Under the pieces are notes generated by a model. The model saw only the letters and a list, made by a program, of their open reading frames with translations, was not told the DNA's origin and made no database searches. The position numbers were made by a program, and so were the translations under genes. DNA of 64,000 nucleotides from Chloroflexota bacterium (lineage in GTDB: Bacteria > Chloroflexota > Anaerolineae > JACRMK01). Position 1 is the stretch's first letter. Each line of letters starts with the position of its first letter. Location of the stretch: assembly GCA_016235055.1 (NCBI GenBank), contig JACRMK010000046.1, forward strand, positions 34,958-98,957, read 5' to 3'. This document shows positions 3,349 to 64,000 of this stretch, piece by piece.

Positions 3349-4947
3349 TTACTTCCGCTCGTAGACGAACTTGCCGCCGACCATCGTCAGGTCCACCTTG
3401 ACGTCGGTGATGCGCGCCGGGTCGATCGTGAAGATGTCCTCGTTCAGCACGGCCAGGTCGGCCAGCTTGCGCGGCGAGATCGAGCCTTTGATGTTCTCTT
3501 CGCCGGAGGCGAACGCCGGGCCCATCGTAAAGCCGTACACCGTCTCCTCGACGGTCAGCTTCTGCTCCGGGTGCCAGCCGCCCGGCGGCGTGCCGTCCTT
3601 CTTCGTGCGGGTGACGGCGGCGTGGATGTTCGGCATCATGTCGAGCGGCTCGACCGGCGCGTCGGAGCCGAGCGCCAGCATCGCGCCCGAGTTCAGCAGC
3701 GTACGGAACGCGTATGTGCGCGCGGCGCGCTCCTTGCCCCAGAAGCGGTCGGCGTTGGCCATGTCGGCCGGCTGGTGGCACGGCTGCATCGAGGCGATGA
3801 CGCCCAGCTTGGCGAAGCGCCCGATGTCCGCGCTGTCCAGCGTCTGGCAGTGCTCGATGCGGCAGCGCAGTTGGCGCTCGGTCGGCCGCAGTTCTTCGTA
3901 GATGTCAAGCATCTCGCGGTTGGCGCGGTCGCCGATCGCGTGGATCGTCGTCGCCAGCCCGTTTTCGATCGCGCGCGACATGCGGTCGTGCAGGACCTCC
4001 AGCGGTGTGACGGCGATGCCGGTATTGGCCGGCGCGCCCTCGAACGGCGACAGCATCAGCGCCGTCTGCGAGCCGAGCGTGCCGTCGGAGAACAGCTTGA
4101 TGCCGCCGATACGCAGCCACTCGTCGCCGAGTCCGGTGCGCAGTCCGAGTGCAATGGCGTGGTCCAGGTCCTCGTCCGGGATGTACGCCAGCACGCGCAG
4201 GTTCAGCGCGCCGCGGTCCTTCAGCGCCTGGTACGCCCAGAGGTGATCCTTGAAGACGCCCTCGTTCGACATGTCGTGCACGCTGCTGATGCCGTGCTTG
4301 TGCGCGTACGCAATGCCATCCTTCATGGCGTTCAACGCGTCCTCGCGGGTCGTCGGCGGGATGAAGTTGCGCACCAGTCCCATCGCGCTTTCGCGCAGGA
4401 TGCCGGTCGGCTCGCCCGACTCGTCGCGGTCGATATGGCCGCCCGGCACGTCGGCCGTGTCTTTGTTGATTCCCGCGATCTGGAATGCGACCGAATTGCA
4501 CCAGAGCAGGTGCCCGTCCGTGCGGCTCAGTGCCACCGGATGGTTCGGCGCGACGCGATCGAGGTCCTGGCGCGTCGGGTAGCGGTTCTCGACCCACTCG
4601 GTCTGGTCCCAGCCACGCCCTTGAACCCACTGGCCGGCGGGCGTCTTCGCGACACGCTCGGCGACGCGCTTGAGCGCCTCCTCCAGCGACGGCAGATCGT
4701 TGTGATCGACCATCTGCATCGCCTGCGACATCGAGGCGAAGTGCAGGTGCGCGTCGCAAAACGCCGGCACCACGGTGCGCCCCTTCAGATCGACCGCCTC
4801 GACGCCGGGCCGGATCAGGTCCTTGAGGTCCTTGTCCATGCCGGCCGTGACGAACTCGCCGTTGCGAATCACGATCGCCTGCGCGCGCGGGCGGCGTGGA
4901 TCCATCGTATGAACGTTGCCGTTGTACAGCACCATGTCAATCTTCAT
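3349..4947 (-). CDS. Amidohydrolase family protein (metal-dependent hydrolase, amidohydrolase-3 / YtcJ-like)
   Basis: 532 aa; metal-binding H-x-H near N-terminus (CDAHLHF), C-terminal HAIGD and GSDAPV motifs typical of the family. Confidence 0.9.
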   Translation of the reverse strand: MKIDMVLYNGNVHTMDPRRPRAQAIVIRNGEFVTAGMDKDLKDLIRPGVEAVDLKGRTVVPAFCDAHLHFASMSQAMQMVDHNDLPSLEEALKRVAERVAKTPAGQWVQGRGWDQTEWVENRYPTRQDLDRVAPNHPVALSRTDGHLLWCNSVAFQIAGINKDTADVPGGHIDRDESGEPTGILRESAMGLVRNFIPPTTREDALNAMKDGIAYAHKHGISSVHDMSNEGVFKDHLWAYQALKDRGALNLRVLAYIPDEDLDHAIALGLRTGLGDEWLRIGGIKLFSDGTLGSQTALMLSPFEGAPANTGIAVTPLEVLHDRMSRAIENGLATTIHAIGDRANREMLDIYEELRPTERQLRCRIEHCQTLDSADIGRFAKLGVIASMQPCHQPADMANADRFWGKERAARTYAFRTLLNSGAMLALGSDAPVEPLDMMPNIHAAVTRTKKDGTPPGGWHPEQKLTVEETVYGFTMGPAFASGEENIKGSISPRKLADLAVLNEDIFTIDPARITDVKVDLTMVGGKFVYERK

Positions 4948-6343
4948 CGTGTCGTTGTCTCCCGGGAAGTAATGCTCGCAAGCGGGCGAGCAGGTTGCTC
5001 ACAAAATCGGCCAGCCGCTGCAGGATGCCTGGCGCGGCCGGCGGCGCATCGACGAGGCTGGGCGGGGCGTGCTCCAGCAGACGCGCTGTCACGCCGCCGG
5101 CGTCGTCAAAGTCGAGACGCGCATAGTTGAGGCGACGCAGGGCGGCGTATGCGTCCGGTTTAGCGAACAGTTCGCGCCAGCGGCTGTCGTTGGCCCCGGA
5201 CAGGTCCAGTTGCCAGACCCAGCAGCCGGTATTGATGTAGCGCGCGCCGTTCCGCAACTCCATATCGACCGGCCGGTGCGTGTGCCCCAGCAGGACGACC
5301 GTCGCGCCATTCGTCTGCGACAACTGGGCGGCGCCGTCGATCAGGCGACGGTCCTGCTCCTCCTGCATCTGCTGAGCCGTCGCCTGCGGATCGGCCGACG
5401 CGCCGGGCGCCGGCGTTTCGCGGGCGACCGCGTCCATTTCATCCAGCGCGTGGCCCAACAGCGCATGCACTTCGGCGCGATAGGCGTCGCTGGTGCGGTA
5501 GCGCTGGGCAGCGAATTCGGGGTTCGTTTGCAGGTTCGTCAGCCACGAATCGCGGATCTCGTCGCGCACGCCGGCCAGGCGCGGCGCGGCGCGCAACAGC
5601 GCGACCAGCGTGCGGAACGCAAACGACGGGTCGTATTTGAGCGCGTGCCAGACCAGCGCGCCGATCGGCTTGACGCCGTCCACCCAGTACTTGTCGCGCT
5701 CGACGCGGTTGAAGAACTCGATGACGAACTTCGAGCCCCACGGCGTCTCGATCTGCGACGGATCGCCCGGCGCGAGCGGCGCAGCCATGTCCCGGAACCG
5801 GTTGGCCGACTCGGCGTACTGGTTGCCATGTTCCATGCAGGCTGCCCCGTGCCGGTAGCTGACGGCTGGGAACTCCACCAGCGTGCGCCGCTCGCCGCCC
5901 GCGCCGATCGCCTCGCGCAGCGCCTCCTGCACGGCCGACCAGTACCAGTGCGGGTCGTGGTTGCCGCGCAGGATGACGAGCCGGCGGCGCGGCGCATCGG
6001 CGCGCAGCCAGTCGCGCAGCGCGTCGAACAGCGGCCCATGCCCGGCGATGACGTGCCGCAGCCGCTGGGCCGACGCGCTCGGGCCCATATCGGCGTAGTC
6101 GGCGGGCGGGTAGTCCTGCGCGGGATCAAACGAAGCAGCGCGTGGCACCTGCAGGAACTCGACGAAATCGCCGTTGATGACCAGTTCGGCGGCGCGGCCG
6201 CTCTCCTCGCTCTCGCGCGCCAGCGCGGCCAGCAGCGAGGCGAACGCGCCATCGCTGGCGAAGTCTTCGAGCGTGTTTCCGGCGTAGAACCGGCCCGCCC
6301 CGAGATGCAGATCGCTCAGGACGGCGACGATATCGCCTGCCAT
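4937..6343 (-). CDS. Metallophosphoesterase (calcineurin-like phosphoesterase)
   Basis: Start chosen at MAGDIVAVLSDLHLG (7 codons downstream of alternative ATG at 6364; track ORF begins further upstream at 6460); D-x-H, GDFVE, GNHD metallophosphatase motifs; 3' end overlaps amidohydrolase start by 11 nt. Confidence 0.85.
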   Translation of the reverse strand: MAGDIVAVLSDLHLGAGRFYAGNTLEDFASDGAFASLLAALARESEESGRAAELVINGDFVEFLQVPRAASFDPAQDYPPADYADMGPSASAQRLRHVIAGHGPLFDALRDWLRADAPRRRLVILRGNHDPHWYWSAVQEALREAIGAGGERRTLVEFPAVSYRHGAACMEHGNQYAESANRFRDMAAPLAPGDPSQIETPWGSKFVIEFFNRVERDKYWVDGVKPIGALVWHALKYDPSFAFRTLVALLRAAPRLAGVRDEIRDSWLTNLQTNPEFAAQRYRTSDAYRAEVHALLGHALDEMDAVARETPAPGASADPQATAQQMQEEQDRRLIDGAAQLSQTNGATVVLLGHTHRPVDMELRNGARYINTGCWVWQLDLSGANDSRWRELFAKPDAYAALRRLNYARLDFDDAGGVTARLLEHAPPSLVDAPPAAPGILQRLADFVSNLLARLRALLPGRQRHDED

Positions 6344-6349
6344 GCGCGG

Positions 6350-6355
6350 ATTATA
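6350..6355 (-). promoter_or_regulatory. -10 hexamer TATAAT 6 nt upstream of metallophosphoesterase ATG (leaderless-type promoter)
   Basis: mRNA-sense sequence TGGTATAATCCGCGCATG; spacing fits a transcript starting at or next to the start codon. Confidence 0.5.
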
Positions 6356-6523
6356 CCACGGCATGACGGCGTGACAGGATGACAGGCTGGCCGGGTGACA
6401 CGGTGACACGATGAAGAGATGACGGGATAACACGATGACAAGGGGCAGCTTGGGGCGCACTATGAGCGCAGATTCGCGTTATTCGCGGACAGGTTGTTTT
6501 TAAGAAGTCCGACGGTTTGACGG

Positions 6524-6529
6524 TATAAT
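6524..6529 (+). promoter_or_regulatory. -10 hexamer TATAAT 7 nt upstream of epimerase ATG (leaderless-type promoter)
   Basis: GGTATAATGCCGCGTATG; no Shine-Dalgarno between box and ATG at 6537. Confidence 0.5.
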
Positions 6530-6536
6530 GCCGCGT

Positions 6537-7487
6537 ATGTCCTTATGTCTCGTAACCGGCGCGGCTGGCTTTGTCGGCTCGACGCTATCTGAGCGGCTGC
6601 TTACCGACGGCCACACCGTCGTCGGCATCGATTGCTTCACTGACTATTACGCACGCGACGTCAAAGAGAGCAACCTTGCGACGCTGCGCCGACACCCGCG
6701 TTTCACGCTGATCGAGCGAAACCTCGCGACCGGCGACCTCTCGGACGTCATCGACGGCGTTGATGCCGTGTTTCACCAGGCCGGCCAGCCCGGCGTCCTG
6801 CCCTCCTGGGGCCGGCTGTTCGACCAGTACGTGACCAACAACATCATCGCGACACAGCGCTTGCTCGAAGCGCTCAAGGGGCGGCCGCTGCAGCGCTTCG
6901 TTTTCGCCTCGTCGTCCACCGTGTACGGCGAAACGCCCGACCTGCCGGTGCGCGAGACCTCCCTGCCGCGCCCGATCGTGCCGTACGGCGTCACCAAGCT
7001 GGCCGCCGAGCACCTGGTCAATATGTACCACCTCAACTTCGGGCTGCCGGCCGTGATCCTGCGCTACTTCAGCGTGTACGGCCCGCGCCAGCGGCCCGAC
7101 ATGGCGCTCCACAAGTTCATCAATGCCATCGCGCGCGGCGAGACGATCCAGATTCGCGGCGACGGCGAGCAGACGCGCGATGCGACGTACGTGGACGACA
7201 TCGTCGAGGCGAACGTGCTGGCACTGCGCGCCGGCGACGGCGTGCTCGGCAGCGTGTTCAACATCGGCGGCGGCGAAAGCGCCAGCGTGAACCAGATCAT
7301 TCAGCACATGGAGCAGATCATCGAGCGCGCCGCCGTGACGACCCATGTGCCGACGCAGCCCGGTGAACTGCGCCACCAGTGGGCCAATACGAGCCGCGCG
7401 CACGACGCGCTCGGCTTTGCGCCGCACATGCCGTTCAGTCAGGGCTTGCGCCACCAGATCGAATGGCAAATCGGCGGCGGCCAATGA
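6537..7487 (+). CDS. NAD-dependent epimerase/dehydratase (SDR family, UDP-sugar 4-epimerase-like)
   Basis: N-terminal TGAAGFVGS Rossmann motif, YxxxK catalytic pair (YGVTK); start taken at second ATG (MSLCLV). Confidence 0.9.
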   Translation: MSLCLVTGAAGFVGSTLSERLLTDGHTVVGIDCFTDYYARDVKESNLATLRRHPRFTLIERNLATGDLSDVIDGVDAVFHQAGQPGVLPSWGRLFDQYVTNNIIATQRLLEALKGRPLQRFVFASSSTVYGETPDLPVRETSLPRPIVPYGVTKLAAEHLVNMYHLNFGLPAVILRYFSVYGPRQRPDMALHKFINAIARGETIQIRGDGEQTRDATYVDDIVEANVLALRAGDGVLGSVFNIGGGESASVNQIIQHMEQIIERAAVTTHVPTQPGELRHQWANTSRAHDALGFAPHMPFSQGLRHQIEWQIGGGQ

Positions 7488-10900: not shown

Positions 10901-11889
10901 GTGTCGAAGCCGTTGTCGGTGCCCCATGAGTTCGAGACGATATCCGGCGCCAGCGCCGGGTCGCCTCCGGGCGCAATGACCCACTGGAAGCCGGCGTGAA
11001 TCCACGAGTCGAGCCCGCGCCCGCTGTTGTCGAAGATCTTCGCGGCGATCCACTTCGCGCCGGGCGCCACGCCGATTGTGTCGCCGGGCGCGCCGCCGAC
11101 GAGCGTGCCCATCGTGTGTGTGCCGTGGCCGTAACCGTCGCCGGGGTAAAGGTAGCCGCTGCCGGTGGCGTCGAACCAGTTGCCGGTGTGCACCGCCGGG
11201 CCGCTGCCGCGATAACCGCGGTAGCGCGTCTGCAGCGCCGGGTGTTGCCAGTCCACGCCGGTGTCGAGATTGGCGATGACGACGCCGGAACCGTCGATGC
11301 CGAACGCGCTCCAGACGCGGTCGGCGCCGATCAACTGGAGGTTCCACTCGGCGGCAGAGGCGGCAGCCGGGGCGGCGGGCGGCGCATCGTCCGCTGCCGT
11401 GAGCACGCCGTCGACCAGTTGCCGCACGTGATCGGCGCGCACAACCGACACCTCCGACAGGGCAGCCAGCGCGAGAATCGTATCGCGGTCGGCTTCGCCG
11501 GCCAGCGCGTTCGCAATCCAGAGCACGCGCGGCGGCCCGGCCTGCCCGGATGTCTGTCGCGCCGCGAGCAGCGCGCGCGCGTTGACCTGCGCCCGGTCGG
11601 CGGCAATTTGCAGCGCCGACACGACCGACGCCGCGCGCGGGGCGCGCCCGCCCGTCGTCGCCGGCACCAGGCTGGCGCGCGCCGAGAAATGCGCCACAAA
11701 TGGCACGCGACCGCCTTTGGTTTGCAGCAGTTGTTTGCGAAGCGCCGGCTCGAGCTTGCGCGCGCTGTCGGGGAACGGCGCGCCGGCGGGCGCGGCGCTG
11801 GTGGCCGGCCCACGCGGGTCGAGCAGGGCCGCGCAGAGCAGCAACAGGGGCAGCAGCGCGACCAGCACGCGCGATAGTCGGCGGTTCAC
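7969..11889 (-). CDS. Secreted subtilisin-like serine protease (peptidase S8) with long C-terminal beta-rich extension
   Basis: 1306 aa; signal-peptide-like N-terminus; catalytic triad motifs DTGVD, HGTHTMG, GTSMAAPHVAG; GTG start. Confidence 0.9.
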   Translation of the reverse strand: MNRRLSRVLVALLPLLLLCAALLDPRGPATSAAPAGAPFPDSARKLEPALRKQLLQTKGGRVPFVAHFSARASLVPATTGGRAPRAASVVSALQIAADRAQVNARALLAARQTSGQAGPPRVLWIANALAGEADRDTILALAALSEVSVVRADHVRQLVDGVLTAADDAPPAAPAAASAAEWNLQLIGADRVWSAFGIDGSGVVIANLDTGVDWQHPALQTRYRGYRGSGPAVHTGNWFDATGSGYLYPGDGYGHGTHTMGTLVGGAPGDTIGVAPGAKWIAAKIFDNSGRGLDSWIHAGFQWVIAPGGDPALAPDIVSNSWGTDNGFDTVFQDDVRAVRAAGIVQVFSNGNNGVMGLGTVGAPASYPESFGVGATDSADQVAYFSSRGPSPIDGHIKPDVSAPGVGVRSSVPGGGYQLMSGTSMAAPHVAGLAALLRQAQPSLTVDGTYYLITSTALPLTTSVPNNNTGWGRVDAFQAVLQATAYGTLSGTITAEGAPLAGAQIVATDRLSRTATASSGPDGVYRLPLAPGDYWVSVFAYGFAPALNNALAITTAQATTLDATLLRLPSGVVRGRLTDVASSQPISASVQASGTPATTTAGADGFYTLTLPVGDYTLRTSAWAHRALTATVSLTANALLTVDFALASAPTILLVDSGAWYMGSQIQYYRDALDALGYPYAVHAIGDPLHGAPATTTLQAYDIVVWSAPFDSPDYIGAGQTLIEYFNYGGRMLLSGQDIAFWDAGPGFAGYDYFPYRLHGQFAADAVATTHVAGISGEALQGITFTLNTTDSAHNQGSTDAVQPLDATARPLARYATGDIAGLVVDTCVPYRAAYLSFGFEGAGPAATRQAALQQLINWLTAAPAVHGLSVTDDASIAVGVPGATVTHAVSVRNTGIVSDAFDLALSGQAWPTALWSGGAPLGSPLTLGACEIRALELRTTIPTDAARNTSDQAQLAVQAQGDPSVAQTRTVTSKTPAPLLLVDDDRWYEQEQKYTATLAAAGIAYDVFDTRGGPGPSTATMQMYPLVVWFTGYDWFDPLSANDEAVLAAYLNAGGRLFFTSQDYLDVRYGQSSFAPSYLGVLSYTNDVTVTSVGGARYSPIADGLGPYTLTFPFNNFSDYVLPTVTATAAYLGNGAQPSAVTVRQPNGVWKTAYFAFPFETLPVAARPVVLGRVAGWLGPLGDSAVIAPSSVLTGAAFTYQLSLTTSNAAFGAGARVTVTLPASVTLLSLGDPSLAYDAPSRSIRWSGMVTAAPPLTWTVQLDPAAADPFYAQYEVADVDEGFVLVRRAWTFVERAKLYLPLIRQ

Positions 11890-11941
11890 AGACAGATGTT
11901 ACCGATAAAGCGGCGCAGGCGCAAGCGAGTTGTGCGGTAGG

Positions 11942-12192
11942 AGGTATATTCAGTTCTGGGGCGCAACCAATACGGAGCAAGAACATAGTAGCTCGTTATG
12001 TCCGCGTAGGGGCGCATGGCCATGCGCCCGCATCCAGAGGTGCTGCCCCCTGGATTCCCGCGGTGCTCTGCGGCCTTCATCCTGTGCCCGCGCCTGCGGC
12101 GCGGAGCGGGGCGAAGCCCCGCTGCACAGGACATCGCGCAGAGCGTTAACCGCCCGCTGGCCCGAAGCCAGCGGGAAACGCGCGGGAGTGAC
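11942..12192. repeat. Composite intergenic repeat, family 4 (GGTATATTCAGTTCTGGGGCGCAACC module plus GTAGGGGCGC hairpins)
   Basis: Modules recur at about 31255-31370 (inverted) and 55057-55220; several perfect short palindromes. Confidence 0.55.
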
Positions 12193-20223: not shown

Positions 20224-20233
20224 AGCTGTTATC

Positions 20234-20452
20234 GGGGATCGGGTTTCAGGTGTCAGGGATCAGGGGATAGGGTATAGGGCATAGTGAGAGCGTCTTGCGC
20301 CGGCCGTCGACATCCGCTTCGCGCAGCAACGCCTTGCTCCGATCCCGAATACCCGATGCCCGGACTCTATGCCTTGTTCCCCGAAACCTGACCCCTGATT
20401 CTCTATTCCCTATCCCCTGATCCCTGACACCCGATCCCTGATACCCGACCCC
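20234..20452. repeat. Large imperfect palindrome in divergent promoter region
   Basis: Left arm GTGTCAGGGATCAGGGGATAGGG is mirrored as CCCTATCCCCTGATCCCTGACAC about 140 bp away; arms extend to about 50-85 bp with mismatches. Confidence 0.6.
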
Positions 20453-20500
20453 CGCTCAACGCGTTTGATTATACCGCCGATATTGTGGTATTGTGATGAT

Positions 20501-21724: not shown

Positions 21725-21739
21725 CCGGAAAGCCCACCG

Positions 21740-21955
21740 CAGAGCACGCAAAGAGCGCAAAGAAAAGCTTTGTTGACCGTGAATAACGCGAATTGGCGCT
21801 AGTCGAACGCTAACCGCAGAGAACGCAGAGGAAAACAAGACCAACCGCAAAGCACGCAAAGAGCGCAAAGGAGAACCCTGCTTTCGATTGGCGTCGATTC
21901 GCGTTATTCGCGGATAGAGAGCTTTTCTTTGCGGTCTTTGCGCCCTTTGCGGTTC
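21740..21955. repeat. MITE-like element, family 2 (nested inverted repeats; inner GAATAACGCGAAT / ATTCGCGTTATTC)
   Basis: Outer inverted repeat CGCAAAGAGCGCAAAG / CTTTGCGCCCTTTGCG and inner CCGCGAATAACGCGAAT-type termini; related copy at 56831-56974 and solo ends near 2712, 6465, 24808. Confidence 0.6.
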
Positions 21956-22026
21956 AATGTTCTTGGTGTCCATTCGTGTTCCTTCGTGGACAAAGGTGAT
22001 GTTGAATCTTCCCTGGGGATTTTCTA

Positions 22027-24765: not shown

Positions 24766-24839
24766 AACTTTTCACCGCAGAGAGCGCAGCGAGAACCTTT
24801 GTATCCGCGAATAACGCGAATCGGCGCGAATAGAACAAC

Positions 24840-24995
24840 TGCGTCCCCCAATGAACGCAAAGAGCGCAGAGGTTACTCCCTGCGCTCTCGTCATCTCTTC
24901 ATCCAGTTATCTTGTCATCTCTTCATCCAGTCATCTTGTCATCTCTTCACCTTGTCACCTTGTCACCTTGTCATCTTGTCATCCCGTCATCTTTC
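24840..24995. repeat. Short tandem repeats (CTTGTCAYC units) next to solo family-2 repeat end
   Basis: TCATCTCTTCATCCAG... then CACCTTGTCACCTTGTCACCTTGTCATCTTGTCATCC; similar GTGACAGGATGACAGG tract in inverted orientation near 6380-6450. Confidence 0.55.
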
Positions 24996-25479
24996 AGATG
25001 ACCGGCTTCTCCTTGTCGGTCAGGTTGACGACGACGGCGCGGCTCGCCTTGACCAGGTCGGCCGGCGCAATCAGGATCTCCTCGCCCCACTGGCCGGTGC
25101 CGACGCCGAGCACGCTCTCAATCAGCAGTGACGCTTCGAGGAACGAGCGGAAGCCCGGCCTCTGCCAGTGAAACGGCGGGATCGAGCCGATCTCGTAGCC
25201 GGTCGTCGTTTTGACCGCTTCCGGGCTGGCGAGCTTGATGTTGCGCGAGTTGAGCACCTTCTTCAGGTGCCCGGAGATCGCGCTCTGGTCGCCGCCGAGC
25301 ATGATCAGTGCCCGCTCGCCGCGGTCGTTCTCGAAGATCAGCGTCTTGACCATCTGCCGCTCGTTGAAGCCGAGCGCGCGCGCCACCGAGGCCGCGCCTT
25401 TCTCGATGTCGGTCGGGAATGAGCGCCGCTCGTATGGAATATTCTGCTGGTCGAGGTAGTCGTGGGATGGCAGGTTCAT
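24994..25479 (-). CDS. ybaK: YbaK/ProX-type aminoacyl-tRNA deacylase (Cys-tRNA(Pro) editing domain)
   Basis: 161 aa from internal ATG with AGGAGA upstream; central G-rich loop and K...GG editing-domain pattern (MVKTLIFENDRGERALIMLGGD). Confidence 0.75.
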   Translation of the reverse strand: MNLPSHDYLDQQNIPYERRSFPTDIEKGAASVARALGFNERQMVKTLIFENDRGERALIMLGGDQSAISGHLKKVLNSRNIKLASPEAVKTTTGYEIGSIPPFHWQRPGFRSFLEASLLIESVLGVGTGQWGEEILIAPADLVKASRAVVVNLTDKEKPVI

Positions 25480-25687: not shown

Positions 25688-25852
25688 AAATTGCCGATTG
25701 TTGCCGACTTTTAGCGCTTCTTGCCTGTTTGGTGCCCCTTCGTGCCGCTTCGTGGACAATGCTCCCGCGATTTCTGGTATACTTTCAAGGATACGGCCGC
25801 GCGCGGCGGCGCGCCAGCCGGCTGGCGCTGGTTACCCACGGAGGACGCGAAT

Positions 25853-31037: not shown

Positions 31038-31254
31038 ACGACGCCCGTCGGCGCAATCGAAATTATACCCGCGCTATGGATGACGGGCAACTGGCGACCC
31101 GGCAACGGGTATACCGACAAACTGTCGGGGACTCAATCGGTCGTCATGCCGGAATGGCGGATTGGTCAGCCGTGCGGCCCCGACACTTTTGCGGTATACC
31201 CTTTCAATTGGGTGCATTTCGGATTGGGGCCGGGCGCATGCAACTCAACGAGGC

Positions 31255-31370
31255 GTCACTCCCGCGGAAGCGGGAGTCCAGGGACAACACCGCTGGATGC
31301 CCGCGCTGGTCGGCGGCGAGCCACCGTGGTCTCATACCGTATTGGTTGCGCCCCGGAACTGAAAATACCC
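31255..31370. repeat. Intergenic repeat, family 4 partial copy
   Basis: CGTATTGGTTGCGCCCCGGAACTGAAAATACC is the reverse complement of the module at 11942; CACTCCCGCGGAAGCGGGAGTC hairpin. Confidence 0.5.
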
Positions 31371-32397: not shown

Positions 32398-32565
32398 GAT
32401 GAGGTGCCGGCATTGTAGGTGCGGCCCCGGCAATCCGCAAATCGGCGCCAGATGCGCGCACGGTTAGCAGCACAATACGCCGTCGAATCACACCTTATTG
32501 TCGGAAAGCCTACCCTTCGACAGGCTCAGGGTACGTGTGTCATTGCGCCCGGCCGCTGGCCGTGT

Positions 32566-32571
32566 TATGAT
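32566..32571 (+). promoter_or_regulatory. -10-like hexamer TATGAT 7 nt upstream of ATG (leaderless-type)
   Basis: GTGTTATGATGCCGGTCATG. Confidence 0.4.
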
Positions 32572-32578
32572 GCCGGTC

Positions 32579-42535: not shown

Positions 42536-43507
42536 TCAATAGTTCTTCCGCAAGTCCAGCCCCGCGTAGAGGCCGGCGACCTGCTCGGCATAGCCGTTGA
42601 ACGGCTGCGTCGTCCGCCGGCGCAATTCGCCGATGCGCCGCTCGCTGCCCTGCGACCAGCGCGGGTGATTGACCTCCGGATTCACATTAGCGTAGAAGCC
42701 ATATTCATTCGAGGCAATCGTGCTCCACATCGTCTTCGGCTGCGTGTCGGTTAACTCGATCTTGACGACCGCCTTGATCGACTTGAACCCGTACTTCCAC
42801 GGCACGACCAGCCGGATGCCGCCGCCGTTCGCGGCCGGTAGTTCGCCGCCGTACAGGCCGGTCGCCAGCAGCGTCAGGTCGTTCATCGCCTCGTCGATAC
42901 GCAGCCCTTCCTGGTACGGCCAGGGGTAGAACGGCGAGCGCTGGCCGGGGAAGTCGTCCGGCTTGAAGAGCGTCTCGAAGCGCACATATTTCGCGGCTGC
43001 CGTCGGTTCGACCGCCTTCAGCAGCTTCGCGAGCGGGAAGCCGACCCACGGGATGACCATGCTCCACGCTTCGACGCAGCGCAGGCGGTAGATGCGCTCC
43101 TCGGGCTGGAAGCGCTTGATCATCTCCTCGACGGCGTACTTGCCCGGCTTGCCTACCAGGCCCGACACCTGCACGTCCCACGGCGACGTCTTGAAGTTGG
43201 CGGCGCGCGGCGCAACGCCCTCTTTCTCTTCCGTGAACTCGTAGTAGTTGTTGTAGTGCGTGATGTCCTGGTACGACGTCGCCGGATCGCCCAGTTCGTC
43301 CTTGCGCGCGGACGCGCCCGGCTGGGCCGCAGGCGGCGCCGTGGCCGAAGGCGCCGGCTGCGCGTCGTTGCCTGCCAGCGGACCGCACGCCGCAAGTGCC
43401 ATGCTGCCCGCCACCACGCCGGTGGCCTTGATAAACTCGCGCCGCGAGAGGTACACCGCCTTCGGCGTGACCTCGGATTCCGCGATGCGCGGATAACGGC
43501 TCTTCAT
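42536..43507 (-). CDS. msrP: Protein-methionine-sulfoxide reductase catalytic subunit MsrP (YedY-like molybdopterin oxidoreductase)
   Basis: Twin-arginine signal (SRREFIK), sulfite-oxidase-fold motifs (ITHYNNYYEF, RLRCVEAW, GGGIRLVVPWKYGFKSIKAV). Confidence 0.9.
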   Translation of the reverse strand: MKSRYPRIAESEVTPKAVYLSRREFIKATGVVAGSMALAACGPLAGNDAQPAPSATAPPAAQPGASARKDELGDPATSYQDITHYNNYYEFTEEKEGVAPRAANFKTSPWDVQVSGLVGKPGKYAVEEMIKRFQPEERIYRLRCVEAWSMVIPWVGFPLAKLLKAVEPTAAAKYVRFETLFKPDDFPGQRSPFYPWPYQEGLRIDEAMNDLTLLATGLYGGELPAANGGGIRLVVPWKYGFKSIKAVVKIELTDTQPKTMWSTIASNEYGFYANVNPEVNHPRWSQGSERRIGELRRRTTQPFNGYAEQVAGLYAGLDLRKNY

Positions 43508-43531
43508 ACAGCTCTCCCTCCCTGGGTGTGT

Positions 43532-46259: not shown

Positions 46260-47024
46260 ATGCGCAAAGAGATAGCAACCGTCGTGTTGGGATTAACAAT
46301 GATACTCGCGGCTTGCGGGCCGACCCCCACACCCGCCGCCATGATGCAAGCCGCGATGCCAACGCCTGACGCAATGATGGCCAAGCCGACGCCCGATGCG
46401 ATGATGGCCAAGCCGACGCCCGATGCCATGATGGCCAAGCCGACGCCCGACGCCATGATGGCGCGCCCAACACCCGACGCGATGATGGCGCACCCAACAC
46501 CCGACGCCATGATGGCGCACCCAACACCCGACGCGATGATGGCGCATTCGACCCCGGATGCCATGATGCAAGCCCCGGCCTGGTTTGGCGCATCGCTGAC
46601 CGATGTGCGCACCGGTCAGACGTTCTCGCTCAACGGCTTCAAAGGCAAGGTGGTGCTGGTCGAAACGATGGCGCAATGGTGTCCGAGTTGCCGCACGCAG
46701 CAGACGCAGGTGAAAGACCTGCGCGCGATGTTTGCCGGGCGCGATGATCTGGTGACGATCGCGCTCGACGTGGATCCGAATGAGCAGGCCGCCGACCTGA
46801 AGAAATACGTGCAGGCCAACGGCTTCGAAGGGTTCTACGGCATCGCGCCCGCCGCCGTGGCGCGCGAGATCGGCAATCTTTATGGCGCGCAATTCCTGAA
46901 TCCGCCGTCCACGCCGATCCTGATTGTGGACCGCCACGGCCTGGCGCATCCCCTGCCGTTCGGCATCAAGAGCGCACGCGATCTGGCGAGCGCCATCGAG
47001 CCGTACCTCAAGGACGCCATGTAA
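46260..47024 (+). CDS. TlpA/ResA-like thioredoxin-fold lipoprotein with tandem nonapeptide linker
   Basis: Lipobox ILAAC; seven to eight repeats of A[KRH]PTPDAMM; redox motif WCPSC; AAGGAG upstream. Confidence 0.85.
   Translation: MRKEIATVVLGLTMILAACGPTPTPAAMMQAAMPTPDAMMAKPTPDAMMAKPTPDAMMAKPTPDAMMARPTPDAMMAHPTPDAMMAHPTPDAMMAHSTPDAMMQAPAWFGASLTDVRTGQTFSLNGFKGKVVLVETMAQWCPSCRTQQTQVKDLRAMFAGRDDLVTIALDVDPNEQAADLKKYVQANGFEGFYGIAPAAVAREIGNLYGAQFLNPPSTPILIVDRHGLAHPLPFGIKSARDLASAIEPYLKDAM
46341..46560 (+). repeat. 27-bp tandem repeat array inside the tlpA-like gene (coding, in frame)
   Basis: GCCAAGCCGACGCCCGATGCGATGATG-type unit repeated about 8 times with third-position and K/R/H variation. Confidence 0.8.
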
Positions 47025-48006: not shown

Positions 48007-48174
48007 TCAAAGCAAAACCGTATGCACGCGCCCGGGCGCGCCCGGCGGCCCGCAGGCCGCGATGGCCATACTGCCCGCCACGACGCCGGCGGCCATGATG
48101 AATGCGCGCCGCGAGAGGTACGCCGCCTTCGGCGTGACCTCGGATTCCGCGATGCGCGGATAGCGATTGTTCAT
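48007..48174 (-). pseudogene. Truncated duplicate of the msrP 5' end (RBS plus twin-arginine signal peptide only)
   Basis: About 110 bp near 48060-48175 is roughly 90% identical to msrP 43395-43505 including the GGGAGG ribosome-binding region; reads MNNRYPRIAESEVTPKAAYLSRRAFIMAAGVVAGSMAIAACGP then terminates; end coordinate approximate. Confidence 0.5.
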
Positions 48175-48338
48175 ATTTTTCCCTCCCCTGGATATACGCG
48201 CAGGCCGCCCTGGTCCATTGCCTCCGGCTGTGGCAGCGTGCTGTTCATCTTACCGCCCTTGCCCGAATTGCGTGAACGGCCGCCGGCAACAAAAAGCCCC
48301 GCGTAAGCGCGGGGCGTGTCTGGCTGACCCGCTGCGGG

Positions 48339-54359: not shown

Positions 54360-54821
54360 CTAATTCCCGGTCGTCAAAACCATCATGTCAGCCTGCCCCA
54401 TCAGCGGAATCGTCGAGAAGCCGATGATGCCGGCGAAATACGGGGTCAGACTGTAGGCGACCGCGACGCGCACCGGGCAACCTGCGGCGGCAGAGCCGCC
54501 GGCGCACGTGATTGTTCCGCTGAGCGCTGGATAGCTGACCGTCACATCGCCGCACGCCACCGTCAGTGTGCCGGACAGCGATTCCTGCACACGCGAGCAG
54601 ACCGTCGCCGACGTTCCATCCGGCAGCGCAGCATAATATGCGCCCTCGCGCGCCGCGTTGGTCAGCGCGATGTAGATACGAAACGCGTTGGCGAAGTCAA
54701 CCACGCCGGCCAGCAGGAGGATGAGGAACGGCAACACGAGCGCGAACTCGATCACGCTCTGCGCCCGGCTGTTTTTGCGGTGCAATACTCCGACCATATC
54801 ACCCCATACTCCCTTAACCAT
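54360..54821 (-). CDS. TadE/TadF-like pseudopilin
   Basis: N-terminal AQSVIEFALVLPFLILLLAGVVDF (TadE motif); 153 aa; start may be the internal ATG 24 nt downstream. Confidence 0.75.
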   Translation of the reverse strand: MVKGVWGDMVGVLHRKNSRAQSVIEFALVLPFLILLLAGVVDFANAFRIYIALTNAAREGAYYAALPDGTSATVCSRVQESLSGTLTVACGDVTVSYPALSGTITCAGGSAAAGCPVRVAVAYSLTPYFAGIIGFSTIPLMGQADMMVLTTGN

Positions 54822-55056: not shown

Positions 55057-55220
55057 GGTGCATTTCACTTCTGGGGCGGCTAATGGGCCAACAAGCCGTC
55101 ATGCCGTTGCCCGCTGGCCCCTTGCCAGCGGGCGCTTGACGGTCAGCGGCGAGAAGCCGCTGACCAGCGCGGGCATCCAGAGGTGTTGCCCCTGGACTCC
55201 CGCTTTCGCGGGAGTGACGA
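55057..55220. repeat. Composite intergenic repeat, family 4 copy
   Basis: GGTGCATTTCACTTCTGGGGCGGC module; GCCCGCTGGCCCCTTGCCAGCGGGC and TCCCGCTTTCGCGGGA hairpins matching modules at 12030-12192. Confidence 0.55.
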
Positions 55221-55316
55221 TGTGGAGGGCTGACTGGTTATGCGCCGAATCTCGCCCCTAATCTGAAATACACCCGATAAGAACATTTGTTTCATTGGTG
55301 GTTCATCCTGTGGTAT

Positions 55317-55322
55317 TATAAT
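55317..55322 (+). promoter_or_regulatory. -10 hexamer TATAAT 6 nt upstream of ATG (leaderless-type)
   Basis: GGTATTATAATGATGCCATG. Confidence 0.45.
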
Positions 55323-55328
55323 GATGCC

Positions 55329-56690
55329 ATGCCCCAGCCGATCCATTTTGAGAAAGGCGCGACGCAGACCGTCGCCTTTGTGCCCGGCGCCGACGCGACC
55401 GCCATCGCCGAGACGATGGTCGCCTTCGCCAATGCCGAGGGCGGCAGCCTGTTCATCGGCATGAGCGCCGACGGCCGCATCCACGACCTGTCCGGCGAGG
55501 ATGTCGACGCCTCCGTCACGCGCGCGCAGTCGCTCTGCCGCCCGCCGGTGCGCTCCGAGTGGCAGCGCGTCGAGACGCCGGCCGGCTTCGCCATCGGCAT
55601 CACCATCGCGCGCAGCCCCGAATTGCACTCGCTGGCCGACGGCCGCGTGCTGATCCGCGCCGGCGCGGAGAACCGGCCGCTGGCCGGCTCCGAGATCCGC
55701 CAACTGGCGGCGACCAAGGGCAGCGGCGATTTCGAAGCGGAACTGGTGCCTGCCGCGCGCCGCGCCGATCTCAGCGACGCCCTCATCAAGGAGTACATCG
55801 CCAAGCGCGAGGAGAAGCAGCGCCGTCGCTTTGCCCAGCCCGCCGACGAGATCCTGCGCGACGCCGCGTTCACCGACGAGCACGGCAACCCGACCGTGGC
55901 CGGATTGCTGCTGCTCGGGCACAACCCGCAAGCGCTCCTGCCGCAGAGCGGGCTCGTCTTCGTGCGCTTCCCCGGCACCCAGCCGACCTCCGGCGAGAAA
56001 GCCGGTTACGGCCGCCGCGAGGAGATCGGCGGCCCCCTGCCGCGCCTGACCGAAGAGGCGTGGGACTTGATTCACCAGGAGATGCGCGTCGGCGCCGTCG
56101 TCACCGGCCTGCGCCGGCAGGAGACGACCGAGTACCCGCCGTTCGCCGTGCGCGAGGCGCTGATCAACGCCGTGGCGCACCGCGACTACCGGCTGGGCGG
56201 TCGGCGCATCGAGGTGCGCATGTTCGACGACCGGCTGGAGATCATCAGCCCCGGCGGGCTGGCCGGCTACATCACCGTGGACAACATTGTCGAGGAGCAC
56301 TTCTCGCGCAACCCGCGCATCGTGCACGGCCTGTTCCAGTGGGGCTACATCGAGGAGCTCGGGCTCGGCGTGGACAAGATGATCGACGACATGCTGGCCG
56401 CCGGGCACCCGCCGCCCAAGTTCAAGCCCGCGCCGTACTCGTTCACCGTGATCCTGTCGAACCAGAAACAGCGCGCGCCGATGCCGACCTGGCAGAAGAA
56501 CATCAGCGAGCGCCAGAAGCGCGCCGTGCAGTACGTGCAGGAGAACGGGCGCATCACCAATCGCGAGTACCAGCAACTGTGCCCCGACGTCAGCGCCGAG
56601 ACGCTGCGCATCGATCTGGCCGACCTGGTCGACAAGGGCCTGCTGATCCGCATCGGCGACAAGAAGGGCACCTATTACATGCTGAAATGA
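55329..56690 (+). CDS. Schlafen/AlbA_2-type ATP-binding protein with HATPase_c_4 and C-terminal HTH (RecG-C-terminal-like putative regulator)
   Basis: N-terminal AFANAEGGSLFIGMSADGRI (AlbA_2 pattern); middle REALINAVAHRDY; C-terminal winged-helix-like segment. Confidence 0.75.
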   Translation: MPQPIHFEKGATQTVAFVPGADATAIAETMVAFANAEGGSLFIGMSADGRIHDLSGEDVDASVTRAQSLCRPPVRSEWQRVETPAGFAIGITIARSPELHSLADGRVLIRAGAENRPLAGSEIRQLAATKGSGDFEAELVPAARRADLSDALIKEYIAKREEKQRRRFAQPADEILRDAAFTDEHGNPTVAGLLLLGHNPQALLPQSGLVFVRFPGTQPTSGEKAGYGRREEIGGPLPRLTEEAWDLIHQEMRVGAVVTGLRRQETTEYPPFAVREALINAVAHRDYRLGGRRIEVRMFDDRLEIISPGGLAGYITVDNIVEEHFSRNPRIVHGLFQWGYIEELGLGVDKMIDDMLAAGHPPPKFKPAPYSFTVILSNQKQRAPMPTWQKNISERQKRAVQYVQENGRITNREYQQLCPDVSAETLRIDLADLVDKGLLIRIGDKKGTYYMLK

Positions 56691-56830
56691 TGCGGGTGCG
56701 TAGGGGCGCGTTGCACGCGTCCCGCAACGGGGCACATGCAATGTGCCCCTACGTTATCCGCAGGTGGCAGATGTCGTTCTGCGAAACGATCATCCGCTGC
56801 CCGCCCAGCACCTCCGCCGCATAGACTCAT

Positions 56831-56974
56831 CCACGAAGGGACACGAAGGAACACCAAGAACACCTTTATCCGCGAATAACGCGAATGAACGCGAATAGAG
56901 CCCACAAACTCCAGAACTGATTGGCCTCGATTCGCGTTATTCGCGGATCGCTTTTTATTTGTGTTCCTTCGTGG
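56831..56974. repeat. MITE-like element, family 2 copy (nested inverted repeats)
   Basis: Outer CCACGAAGGGACACGAAGGAACAC / GTGTTCCTTCGTGG; inner CCGCGAATAACGCGAAT / ATTCGCGTTATTCGCGG. Confidence 0.6.
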
Positions 56975-56982
56975 ACGGTGTG

Positions 56983-59186: not shown

Positions 59187-60785
59187 ATGACCACGTTGTA
59201 TGCCGAGAAGCAGGCTGCGTTCGATTGGATCGAAGCCAACCGAGCGCGCCTTTCCGGCTTCTGCGAGCAGATCTGGAACTATGCGGAGACGGCGTTCCGC
59301 GAGTACAAGTCCGCGCGCGCGTATTGCGATCTGCTGCGCGCCGAAGGGTTCACCGTCGAGGAAGGCTCCGCCGAGATGCCGACGGCGTTCGTCGCGACGT
59401 ACGGCAACGGCGGGCCGGTGCTGGCGACGTTCTCCGAATACGACGCCGTGCCGGAGAACTCGCAGGAGCGCGTGCCGTACCCGTCGCCGCGCGCCGGCCT
59501 GAACCGCTGGGCGGCCGGGCACACCGACCCGCACTCGTCGCTCGGCACGAGCGCGCTGATCGGTGCGCTGGCCGCCAAGGCGATGATGGTCAAATACGGG
59601 CTGCACGGCACGCTCAAGCTGTTCGGCGAGCCGGCGGAGAAGGTCTGCGGTTCCAAGCCGGTACACGCCGCCAAGGGGTATTACGACGGGCTCGACGCGG
59701 CGGTCGTCTATCACCCCAATGCCAGCAACTCCGTAGTGTGGGAAACACACAGCGGCTCGTACTGGAGCGCGGCGTTCGTCTTTGAGTGCATCGATCCGGA
59801 GGAGTGGATCGACCAGCGCCTGCTGCCGAACACGAGCACCTCGCACGCGGCGGCGCGCTGTCCGGCGGCGATCGACGCGCTGTGCCTGATGTATACGCTG
59901 ACCAAGTACAGCAAGGAGGCGATGTTCCCGCACACCGGCACCTGGACGCTCAACGAGAACATCATGGTTGGCGGGCAGTGCACCTCGGACAACCTGCCGC
60001 CGCGCCTGGCGGTCATCCAGTACTCGTGGCGCTCGCCGACGCTCGACATCCAGGAGCGCGTATTCCAGGTGCTGGCGCAGAACGCGCGGCAGGTCGCCGG
60101 CGCGACCGGCTGCGTCGCCTCGGTGCGCTGGATCACGAAGACGCGCGTCGGCCTGCCGAACCTGGCGATCTCCGACCTGGCCTACCGCAACCTGGAACTG
60201 GTCGGCGCGCCCCAGTTTGGAGACGAGGCGCGCACCTTCGCCCGCGCGATCCAGAAGAATCTCGGCTTCGAGCCGATGGACGACCCGTTCATTGCCGACA
60301 ACCAGACGCTGACGCCGCCGCCCGAACTGGAAGCGCGCGTGCGCCAGGGCCTGCCGCCGTGGCAGCTCAACTTCACGTCGGATGATTATGTGGAATACAC
60401 CTGGCACGCGCCGACCGTGCGGCTCTACACGGCGCGGCCGCGCCTGAAGGCGCCCAAGCCCGGTTACACGTACCCGGCATGGGTGAACAACGCGATGGGC
60501 GGCGTGCCGGCCTGCATCGATCCCGGCATGTTCGTCGCGGGCAAGACGATCGCCGCGACGATGCTCGATCTGCTCAAGTCCCCGGACGAGCTCGCCAAAG
60601 CGCAAGCCGAGTTCCGCGAGCGGACGGGTGGCGGCGTGGGCGGCAGCCAGTGGGTCGCGCCGCTGTTGGCGCGCGATTTCCCGCCGCCGGTCGAATTACG
60701 CTGGCCGGAGTACGTGCAGACGCCGCGCGGCGAGGAGTGGTGGGTGCCGACGGTGACGCACGAATCGGCCTACGTGAAGCTGTAG
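59187..60785 (+). CDS. M20-family amidohydrolase (aminobenzoyl-glutamate-utilization AbgB-like)
   Basis: 532 aa from internal ATG with AAGGAGG upstream; metal-ligand regions (GHTDPHS, EPAEK) typical of M20 peptidases. Confidence 0.8.
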   Translation: MTTLYAEKQAAFDWIEANRARLSGFCEQIWNYAETAFREYKSARAYCDLLRAEGFTVEEGSAEMPTAFVATYGNGGPVLATFSEYDAVPENSQERVPYPSPRAGLNRWAAGHTDPHSSLGTSALIGALAAKAMMVKYGLHGTLKLFGEPAEKVCGSKPVHAAKGYYDGLDAAVVYHPNASNSVVWETHSGSYWSAAFVFECIDPEEWIDQRLLPNTSTSHAAARCPAAIDALCLMYTLTKYSKEAMFPHTGTWTLNENIMVGGQCTSDNLPPRLAVIQYSWRSPTLDIQERVFQVLAQNARQVAGATGCVASVRWITKTRVGLPNLAISDLAYRNLELVGAPQFGDEARTFARAIQKNLGFEPMDDPFIADNQTLTPPPELEARVRQGLPPWQLNFTSDDYVEYTWHAPTVRLYTARPRLKAPKPGYTYPAWVNNAMGGVPACIDPGMFVAGKTIAATMLDLLKSPDELAKAQAEFRERTGGGVGGSQWVAPLLARDFPPPVELRWPEYVQTPRGEEWWVPTVTHESAYVKL

Positions 60786-60835
60786 CCAAACGCGACGCAC
60801 AAACGGAAGCGGGACAGGCATGATGCCTGTCCCGC
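60705..60835 (+). repeat. Direct repeat, left copy (3' end of M20 gene plus terminator)
   Basis: 131 bp; identical to 62092-62222 except 2 substitutions. Confidence 0.85.
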
Positions 60836-60841
60836 TTTTTT
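60811..60841 (+). terminator. Rho-independent terminator of M20 gene
   Basis: GGGACAGGC-atga-GCCTGTCCC followed by GCTTTTTTG. Confidence 0.7.
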
Positions 60842-62054: not shown

Positions 62055-62091
62055 ACACTTGATTCCATCGATACCGTGCGGTTTGCTCTGG

Positions 62092-62222
62092 CCGGAATAC
62101 GTGCAGACGCCGCGCGGCGAGGAGTGGTGGGTGCCGACGGTGACGCACGAATCGGCCTACGTGAAGCTGTAGCCAAACGCGACGCACAAACGGAAGCGGG
62201 ACAGGCATCATGCCTGTCCCGC
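62092..62222 (+). repeat. Direct repeat, right copy (duplicate of M20 3' end plus terminator hairpin)
   Basis: Same 131 bp as 60705-60835 with G-to-A at position 6 and loop ATGA-to-ATCA; followed by TTCATTTTC. Confidence 0.85.
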
Positions 62223-62459
62223 TTCATTTTCACTCGGGCGCGGTATTCTGTTCGGACCCTATCTGGCTGCGTCGGGATCGCGTAGGGGCGCACCGACGTG
62301 TGCGCCCGCCTGGCACGCTGCGGGCCGACACGCAGGTCGGCCCCTACCACCGGCGCTTTGCGGGTGGCTTTGCCCAATTCGCACGCATGTTCTAAGTTTG
62401 TGCTATAATAGCGACGGGCACAGAACATTAGTTCTCACTACCGCTATAGGAGAATCGCG

Positions 62460-62733: not shown

Positions 62734-64000
62734 TTACGCCGGTCGCCAGCAGAGGTCCGGCTTGCGCGCTGCCGTCGCCTCGTCCAGCCGCGAGACCGGC
62801 GTGGTGTGCGGCGCAGAGCGCACGAGCTCGGGGTTCTCCTCGGCCTCGCGCGCGATCTGCAGCATCACCTCGCAGAAGCGGTCGATCGTCTCCTTGCTCT
62901 CCGTCTCGGTCGGCTCGACCATCAGCGCTTCCTCGACGACCAGCGGGAAGTAGACCGTCGGCGGGTGAATGCCGAAGTCGATCAGCCGCTTGGCGATGTC
63001 GAGCGTGCGCACGTTGTTCTTCGCCTGGCGCTTGCCGGAAAAGACGACCTCGTGGTAGCAGGTGCGGTCGAACGGCAGGTCGTACGCGCCCTTGAGGCGC
63101 TCCTTGATGTAGTTCGCGTTCAGCACGGCGATCTGGCTCACCTCGCGCAGGCCGTCCTCGCCGTGTGAGCGGATGTACGCGTAGCCGCGCACCAGGTTGG
63201 CGAAGTTGCCGTGGAACGCGCGCACCCGGCCGATCGACAGCGGCCGGTCGTTGTCGAGCGTGTAGCGGCCATCCTTGAATGCGACGACCGGCGCCGGCAG
63301 GAACGGCGCCAGCGCCTTGGAAACGCTTGTGCCGCACGCGCCCGGCCCGCCGCCGCCGTGCGGCACGCCGAACGTCTTGTGCAGGTTGTAGTGCAGGATG
63401 TCGAAGCCGACCTCGCCCGGCTTGCAGATGCCGAGCAGGGCGTTCATGTTCGCGCCGTCGCCGTACACCAGGCCGCCCGCCGCGTGCACCAGTCGATTGA
63501 TCTGCTCGATGTGCTGGTCGAAAAGGCCAACCGTCGACGGATTGGTGATCATCATGCCCGCGACCGTGTCGTCGAGCAGCGCCTTCAGCGCGTCCACGTC
63601 CACGTTGCCGTGGGCGTCCGCCTTGACGGTGACGACGCTGTAGCCGACCATCGCGGCGGTCGCCGGGTTGGTGCCGTGCGAGCTATCCGGCACGATAATT
63701 TTGGTGCGCTTCGTGTCGCCGCGCGACTTGTGATAGCCGTGGATCATCAGCACGCCGGTCAGTTCGCCGTGCGCGCCTGCCGCCGGCTGCAGCGTCGCGC
63801 CCGCGTGCCCTGCGATCTCGGCGAGCTGCTCCTGCAGTTCGTACATCATGCGCAGCGCGCCCTGCACGGTGCTCTCAGCCTGGTACGGGTGAATGCGCGC
63901 AAAGCCCGCCTGCCCGGCGATGACGTCGTTGATCTTCGGGTTGTACTTCATCGTGCACGAGCCGAGCGGATAGAACACGGTATCCACGCTGAAGTTCTTG
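62734..64000 (-). CDS. gcvPB: Glycine dehydrogenase (decarboxylating) subunit 2, GcvPB; 5' end lies beyond window
   Basis: PLP-enzyme motifs incl. [13 protein letters not shown] and LHKTF (Lys for PLP); reading frame stays open to the window edge. Confidence 0.9.

Follow-up and report, generated by a model that had tools for sequence, protein, structure and literature searches.

The stretch analysed here, called the window throughout, covers 64,000 nt (~65% G+C) of contig JACRMK010000046.1 from a Chloroflexota bacterium (assembly GCA_016235055.1), and all positions follow its own numbering. At 6344-6536 it contains a 193-bp spacer between two divergent genes, which encode a metallophosphoesterase and an NAD-dependent epimerase/dehydratase. 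Here we describe how -10 promoter hexamers lie almost against the start codons of these two genes and of two others in the window, none of them preceded by a Shine-Dalgarno (SD) sequence, an arrangement that would be expected for leaderless mRNAs, which lack a 5' untranslated region (UTR). The four genes are the following:

4937..6343, minus strand: metallophosphoesterase gene, 468 aa; Pfam Metallophos from residue 6; GenBank MBI5878125.1 has the same start
6537..7487, plus strand: NAD-dependent epimerase/dehydratase gene, 316 aa; Pfam Epimerase from residue 5; GenBank MBI5878126.1, also 316 aa
32579..33601, plus strand: D-2-hydroxyacid dehydrogenase gene, 340 aa; -10 at 7 nt, without SD
55329..56690, plus strand: AlbA_2/HATPase_c_4 DNA-binding protein gene, 453 aa; TATAAT at 6 nt, without SD

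The corresponding GenBank proteins are MBI5878125, 126, 148 and 173 (locus tags HZB53_...), encoded on a contig of 139,767 nt, and the 3' end of the metallophosphoesterase gene overlaps the start of a downstream amidohydrolase gene (ATG 4947).

An earlier note on this DNA had claimed that each ATG flanking the 193-bp spacer follows a -10 box at 6-7 nt and has no SD, and a direct reading of the sequence proved this exact at every coordinate. On the metallophosphoesterase side, TATAAT (6355..6350) is followed by CCGCGC (6 nt) and the ATG at 6343..6341, while on the epimerase side TATAAT (6524-6529) is separated from ATG 6537 by GCCGCGT (7 nt). The recurrence of this arrangement elsewhere in the window, also claimed in that note, was confirmed in the same way, with TATGAT at 32566-32571, 7 nt from the dehydrogenase ATG 32579, and TATAAT at 55317-55322, 6 nt from the AlbA_2 ATG 55329. 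All four sites show the TANNNT hexamer ending 6-8 nt 5' of the start that characterizes leaderless genes (spacings of 6, 7, 7 and 6 nt; TATAAT three times and TATGAT once), and the 20 nt before each of the four ATGs contain no GGAG, GAGG or AGGA core. Moreover, each gene is the first of its transcription unit and has its own upstream intergenic region, which for the dehydrogenase is a divergent spacer of 181 bp (32398-32578) and for the AlbA_2 gene a region of ~500 bp 5' of ATG 55329.

The simplest explanation for such an arrangement would be the chance co-occurrence of AT-rich hexamers and start codons. In dinucleotide-preserving shuffles of the window, TATAAT-N6-ATG is expected 0.01 times and TATAAT-N7-ATG 0.02 times, and they are observed twice and once, respectively (3 versus 0.03 combined). 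Given the 15 exact TATAAT hexamers of the window, the probability that at least three have an ATG at +6/+7 is 0.007. All these matches lie in frame at the 5' ends of open reading frames (ORFs) supported by the G+C content of third codon positions (GC3). When hexamers matching the consensus at 5 or more of 6 positions were counted before in-frame starts in the 5' regions of genes, spacings of 6-7 nt accounted for four cases, and every other spacing between 0 and 30 nt for none to two. The sample is nevertheless small, and an unrestricted histogram of ATG/GTG after all 77 near-consensus hexamers shows just a weak peak at 6-8 nt, which becomes clear once the histogram is restricted to the 5' regions of GC3-supported ORFs. 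In addition, the arrangement is kept in orthologues, as described below, against a low baseline. A metagenome scan for closer epimerase orthologues yielded only relatives of at most 57% identity, and these were reused for a cross-phylum comparison. Of its 146 epimerase homologue loci, drawn from many phyla, 3 (~2%) have a -10 with at least 5/6 matches at 6-8 nt, one of the three being the closest relative. Chance is thus an extremely improbable explanation.

The hexamers are accompanied by further promoter elements:

6350..6358, minus strand: extended -10 TGgTATAAT of the metallophosphoesterase gene (hexamer 6355..6350), scoring 10/12 with TG in the promoter scan
6372..6377, minus strand: -35-like CTGTCA at a 16-nt spacer, from the promoter scan; the hexamer is one unit of an octamer array
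6500..6505, plus strand: -35-like TTAAGA at an 18-nt spacer, from the promoter scan
6524..6529, plus strand: -10 TATAAT of the epimerase gene, from the sequence and the promoter scan; the hexamer and its 7-nt spacing are invariant in the orthologous loci L004 and L085
32563..32571, plus strand: extended -10 TGtTATGAT, from the sequence; no -35 at the scan threshold
55311..55322, plus strand: overlapping -10 elements TGgTATTATAAT (TATAAT at 55317-55322), from the sequence; the orthologous locus L169 keeps TGtTATAAT-N6-ATG

In a scan with the sigma-70 consensus, TTAAGA-18-TATAAT and CTGTCA-16-TATAAT both score 10/12, and shuffles of the region contain 0.1 such sites; the -35 boxes of both spacer promoters are 4/6 matches. 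Three of the four sites carry the TGn extension (6350, 32566 and 55314). Judged by these features, the sites fit sigma-70/SigA-type promoters, which combine a TATAAT-like -10 either with a -35 at 16-18 nt or with a TGn extension, and the hexamers behave as real promoters. Rfam and tRNA scans revealed nothing relevant to the 193-bp spacer. Two more genes without SD lie close behind a -10 element on the minus strand, one with TACAAT (32412-32417) 14 nt before ATG 32397, divergent from the 32566 promoter, and the other with TATAAT (31062-31067) 24 nt before ATG 31037. Both may have very short 5' UTRs and SD-free translation.

The choice of start codon is the most vulnerable point of the interpretation, because gene calls in Logan assemblies of the same organism chose longer forms for three of the proteins, namely an epimerase of 319 aa (ATG 6528), a metallophosphoesterase of 475 aa (ATG 6364) and a dehydrogenase of 344 aa (ATG 32567). 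On this alternative, these upstream ATGs would be the true starts, or translation would begin downstream at codons with a ribosome-binding site. The 39-codon extension of the metallophosphoesterase ORF is not clearly non-coding by its GC3 (~0.74 by manual count). The N-termini of homologues, however, fit the shorter forms. All of the metallophosphoesterase homologues printed (60/60) start 3-11 residues before SDLHLGAG, as does MAGDIVAVLSDLHLG; epimerase homologues with an evident start have 3-5 residues ahead of VTGxAGFxG; in dehydrogenase homologues AVSGIPRG is preceded by 2-8 residues, and one with 77% identity also has 340 aa; and AlbA_2/HATPase_c_4 homologues, whose lengths cluster at 453-456 aa, likewise match at the N-terminus. 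The Pfam domains of both proteins flanking the spacer start at residues 5-6, and the GenBank/PGAP proteins have the same four starts. As for the upstream ATGs, they lack an SD as well, L004 and L085 have no equivalent of them, and the upstream extension of the metallophosphoesterase crosses an octamer tandem array. True starts further downstream with a ribosome-binding site, which the earlier note had named as a finding that would speak against its reading, were not encountered, since no in-frame ATG, GTG or TTG lies between the four ATGs and the conserved motifs (GxxGxxG, DxH, SGIPRG). Homologue N-termini, Pfam boundaries and GenBank starts together indicate that the four ATGs are the translation starts, and a misplacement appears highly improbable. 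The Logan N-termini of three of the genes are longer and wrong, a systematic source of start-codon error for leaderless genes in metagenome-assembled genomes (MAGs). Leaderless-aware start prediction therefore matters for Chloroflexota MAGs.

Comparison with orthologues gives stronger evidence that the hexamers are promoters. The closest species-representative genome found for the epimerase is an Anaerolineae MAG with 65% aa identity. Upstream of this gene, G-TATAAT-N7-ATGTCC is the sole block shared without change by the window, L004 (65% aa identity) and L085. L084 (79% aa identity) has exactly the same TGGTATAATCCGCGC-ATG at the metallophosphoesterase gene, and L169 (82% aa identity) has TGtTATAAT-N6-ATGCCCC at the AlbA_2 gene. 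In three gene families, the closest orthologues have thus kept the block of -10, spacer and ATG despite diverged flanks (alignments A1 and A2). The closest orthologue of the D-2-hydroxyacid dehydrogenase, L088, was discarded as a promoter comparison; lying inside an operon, 13 nt behind the gene before it, it tells nothing about the promoter.

The conservation of the -10 element is also independent of the coding sequence. Each of the five metallophosphoesterase orthologues examined has TGGTATAAT upstream, at distances from 6 to 180 nt from the ATG:

Window: -10 to ATG 6 nt, no SD
L084: -10 to ATG 6 nt, no SD
L087: -10 to ATG 33 nt, SD GGGAGA
L086: -10 to ATG 62 nt, SD GGGAGGG
L085: -10 to ATG 180 nt, SD GAGGA

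The SDs of L087, L086 and L085 sit 6-9 nt before the ATG, and the AlbA_2 orthologues at 63-65% identity are likewise SD-led. In this series the SD occurs exactly where a predicted leader exists, as the leaderless reading predicts. L085 (412-603) has the promoter TGGTATAATCCGCGCAT, followed by ATCGCAAGAC where the window has ATGGCAGGCGA, and ATC GCA AGA, seemingly a decayed form of an earlier start, at the position of the window's ATG GCA GGC. Its 180-nt leader contains an inverted repeat or hairpin with arms of ~20 nt, as well as the heptamer repeats AATCACC and GTTCACT, after which come the GAGGA SD and the ATG; the divergent epimerase gene of the same locus is still in the leaderless arrangement. 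This looks like a former leaderless start which was displaced and became leadered. The series of 6, 33, 62 and 180 nt, with an SD only where there is a leader, illustrates how the two initiation modes could be interconverted. A tentative extension of this idea, which we put forward as a possibility rather than as the expected case, is that orthologues in this uncultured Anaerolineae-like lineage switch between leaderless and SD-led initiation while keeping the same TG-extended -10. The dispersed tandem-repeat modules of the lineage, among them the octamer array and 19-nt box found in the 193-bp spacer, would then be the raw material for remodelling the architecture between promoter and start.

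Bacterial RNA polymerase starts transcription ~7 nt (range 6-9) after the -10 hexamer, so that +1 would fall on the A of the ATG where the spacer has 6 nt, and on either this A or the T just before it where the spacer has 7 nt. ATG is the strongly preferred start codon in leaderless translation, and all four starts are ATG. According to the mechanism that we propose, a housekeeping sigma-70/SigA-type promoter would directly abut the coding sequence of each of the four genes, as first genes of their units. RNA polymerase would recognise the -10, often TG-extended, and start ~7 nt downstream, at or within 1-2 bases of the A of the ATG, yielding an mRNA with a 5'-terminal AUG and neither 5' UTR nor SD. 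This mRNA would be translated by the leaderless route, its 5'-terminal AUG being bound directly by a ribosome that carries initiator tRNA. In the 6344-6536 spacer, two promoters of this kind would face apart, with predicted starts 193 bp apart, and SD-led initiation would serve most other genes, operon-internal ones included, so that both modes coexist. Direct binding of leaderless mRNA to the 70S ribosome has been described (PMC5397173).

Both the position of the transcription starts and the mode of translation are inferred from the arrangement of the sequence, and several points weigh against the proposed mechanism. No experimental start-site mapping for any Chloroflexota was found in the literature searched. 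No -35 reaches the scan threshold at 32566 or 55317, although both are TGn-extended. The TGgTATTAT that overlaps the TATAAT at 55317 would set the start 2-3 nt upstream of the ATG, and at the 7-nt spacers transcription could start at the T preceding the ATG. The predicted folds of the 5'-terminal 40 nt of the four putative mRNAs (z from -0.6 to +1.1) are no weaker than those of shuffled controls, and thus uninformative. Finally, the agreement with the GenBank starts is not independent evidence, because the gene finder of PGAP is GeneMarkS-2+. GeneMarkS-2 models the -10 box near gene starts (PMC6028130).

A more serious alternative is that the genes are transcribed from promoters further upstream, giving leadered mRNAs without SD that are translated by means of unstructured AT-rich sequence or protein S1, while the TATAAT would be an AT-rich patch or a minor secondary promoter. 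It gains from the two sites without -35 and from the 17 of 51 window ORFs with neither an SD nor a -10 at the best candidate start, which imply that SD-independent initiation on leadered or coupled mRNAs probably occurs here too. An AT-rich patch, however, needs no exact TATAAT with TGn at exactly 6-7 nt, nor does it need to stay invariant in orthologues whose flanks have diverged, and in other orthologues TGGTATAAT stands alone as the promoter 33-180 nt upstream, there together with an SD. In the case of the divergent pair, each -10 is preceded by a dispersed repeat, beyond which lies the other gene. Upstream promoters are for these reasons an unlikely explanation, though less so than chance or misplaced starts. 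The leaderless reading of the earlier note is in turn supported by the start codons, the quality of the promoters, the conservation in orthologues and the covariation of leader and SD, and we consider it very likely that the four genes produce leaderless mRNAs from housekeeping-type promoters, alongside SD-led genes.

The coexistence of two initiation modes, claimed in the earlier note on account of strong GGAGG sites at other genes, was borne out by a census of the best candidate starts of the 51 GC3-supported ORFs of the window. A 5-nt SD core (GGAGG, AGGAG and similar) precedes 18 of them and a 4-nt core 8 more, so that SD-led genes lie in the same window as the four starts. A strong -10 at 6-8 nt was found for 5 ORFs and a weak one for 2; 17 show neither signal, and 1 has no candidate start in the scanned stretch. 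For one ORF with a strong -10, at 54821, an SD-led start at ATG 54797 is more likely. These counts suggest that roughly 8-10% of the window genes look leaderless. A candidate fifth case is:

11887..11901, minus strand: S8 peptidase gene, TAACAT (weak -10), 6 nt, GTG 11889; the GenBank start agrees

ATG 20501, with TATTGT at 6 nt, was dropped as a further case, as GenBank uses ATG 20531.

The classic leaderless mRNA is that of phage lambda cI transcribed from PRM, where transcription starts at the A of the AUG and no SD is needed. It is a single regulated phage gene whose host rarely uses this mode, whereas here the mode looks routine for housekeeping-type genes. Bacterial leaderless genes are recognised by a -10 box at 6-8 nt from their start, and the 'group C' genomes are defined by it (PMC6028130). 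The genes described here resemble the leaderless genes of Actinobacteria and Deinococcus-Thermus (Mycobacterium tuberculosis, Streptomyces coelicolor, Deinococcus deserti), which have the -10 at 6-8 nt, lack an SD, come first in the operon and coexist with SD-led genes (PMC6028130, PMC3160421). In contrast to the degenerate TANNNT of those other high-GC phyla, the hexamer is here a full TATAAT, often with TGn, despite ~65% GC. The fraction also lies below theirs, at ~8-10% of window ORFs as estimated from sequence alone, compared with TA-led averages of ~19% of genes in Actinobacteria and ~39% in Deinococcus-Thermus (PMC3160421). For Chloroflexi, Zheng et al. (2011, PMC3160421) predicted that 4.0-5.7% of the genes in 4 of 12 genomes are TA-led, with a TAtaaT-type signal. 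The genes of the window agree with those predictions in phylum, type of signal and low frequency, but their source is an uncultured Anaerolineae-like MAG of high GC, in which the local frequency is somewhat higher, and the genomes of that study were described as medium-GC cultured Chloroflexi. The phenomenon is already well known in Actinobacteria and Deinococcus and was predicted for Chloroflexi in 2011, and current understanding is unchanged. What the orthologues add is comparative support for leaderless initiation in a phylum where, as far as we have found, it had been predicted but never mapped.

The 193-bp spacer holds two further features:

6363..6442, no strand assigned: tandem array of the octamer RTGACRSG, ~10 copies; homologous to the reverse complement of 24886-24996
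6471..6489, plus strand: 19-nt box GATTCGCGTTATTCGCGGA, ending 34 nt upstream of the epimerase -10

Read as its reverse complement, the segment 24800-24996, situated between two converging genes, matches 6363-6490 with 73% identity and an unchanged order of modules, so that a single copy of a dispersed composite repeat makes up most of the spacer. This repeat consists of the octamer array (~10 copies at 6363-6490 and ~13 at 24800-24996) followed by GGGGCGCA...CTAT...GATTCGCGTTATTCGCGGA. The -35 of the minus-strand promoter is an octamer unit of the repeat, and both -10 boxes are outside it. L084 has the octamer array upstream of the same metallophosphoesterase promoter, and different heptamer arrays occupy the corresponding places in L004, L029, L085 and L169. 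No evidence that the repeat regulates the spacer promoters was seen. A role of the array as a phase-variation device is unlikely, because its promoter-proximal end is fixed and changes in copy number leave the -35/-10 spacing unaltered; two independent assemblies of the same population agree exactly in the start-to-start distance of the divergent pair.

The box GATTCGCGTTATTCGCGGA occurs seven times in the window (five exact copies) against 0.04 expected, always in intergenic positions (2726, 6471, 21776, 21896, 24804, 56869 and 56929). Among the loci fetched from other organisms up to that check it had no match, and matches were found just on two contigs of the same organism. It could be a repetitive extragenic palindromic (REP)-like element, a terminator or a protein-binding site. 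A function as operator of the epimerase promoter is unlikely because other copies lie between convergent gene ends.

Cyanobacterial short tandemly repeated repetitive (STRR) heptamers are one known family of short-unit repeats. Others are the 'satellites' (GATAGRA)n of Chloroflexus aurantiacus (PMC6749651) and the TAACTGA repeats of Beggiatoaceae (PMC4679880). The repeats of the window share with all three the units of 7-10 nt, the intergenic arrays and the dispersal as families within one genome, and differ from them in pairing the octamer RTGACRSG with a 19-nt box, which together form composite modules and long palindromes. Two near-perfect composite palindromes, at 21725-21995 and 56826-56982, consist of tandem 9-10-mers (CGCAAAGAG, CACGAAGGAA) around inverted copies of GATTCGCGTTATTCGCGGA. 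Their predicted folds reach -127 kcal/mol (z -9.9) and -64 kcal/mol (z -6.7), respectively, and in these models they look like bacterial interspersed mosaic elements (BIMEs) or miniature inverted-repeat transposable elements (MITEs).

Short-unit arrays fill many intergenic regions of this genome and its relatives, with units that differ between genomes. Tandem arrays of 7-10 nt are present at 2910-2928, 20256-20284, 20387-20454 and 25715-25754, as well as in L004, L029, L085 and L169. The GGGATAG unit at 20256 resembles the (GATAGRA)n satellites of C. aurantiacus (PMC6749651), and 20232-20282 and 20398-20448 form an inverted pair. A dispersed intergenic repeat of 64 nt occurs at 31254-31317 (plus strand) and 55156-55219 (minus strand), 94% complementary, with a partial copy at 11939-11995. 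It holds the hairpin CTCCCGC-GRAA-GCGGGAG, and one copy is situated ~100 nt upstream of the 55317 promoter; an Rfam search of the region with the 31254-31317 copy gave no match.

Some minor observations concern other parts of the window. ARAGORN reported a 92-nt tRNA-Ala(ggc) at 63283-63374 (minus strand) which lies inside a GC3-supported coding ORF and is unconfirmed by Rfam, and it is probably a false positive. The gene at 46260-47024 contains an in-frame 27-nt tandem repeat (46353-46568, ~8 copies) encoding an (A/M)xP(T/N)PDAMM-like peptide. A direct repeat of 151 nt (60687-60837 and 62074-62224, 95% identical), which contains the hairpin AAGCGGGACAGGCATGATGCCTGTCCCGCTT, brackets a stretch of lower GC (0.57 at 60-62 kb), and another, of 134 nt and 87% identity, is found at 43375-43508 and 48042-48175.

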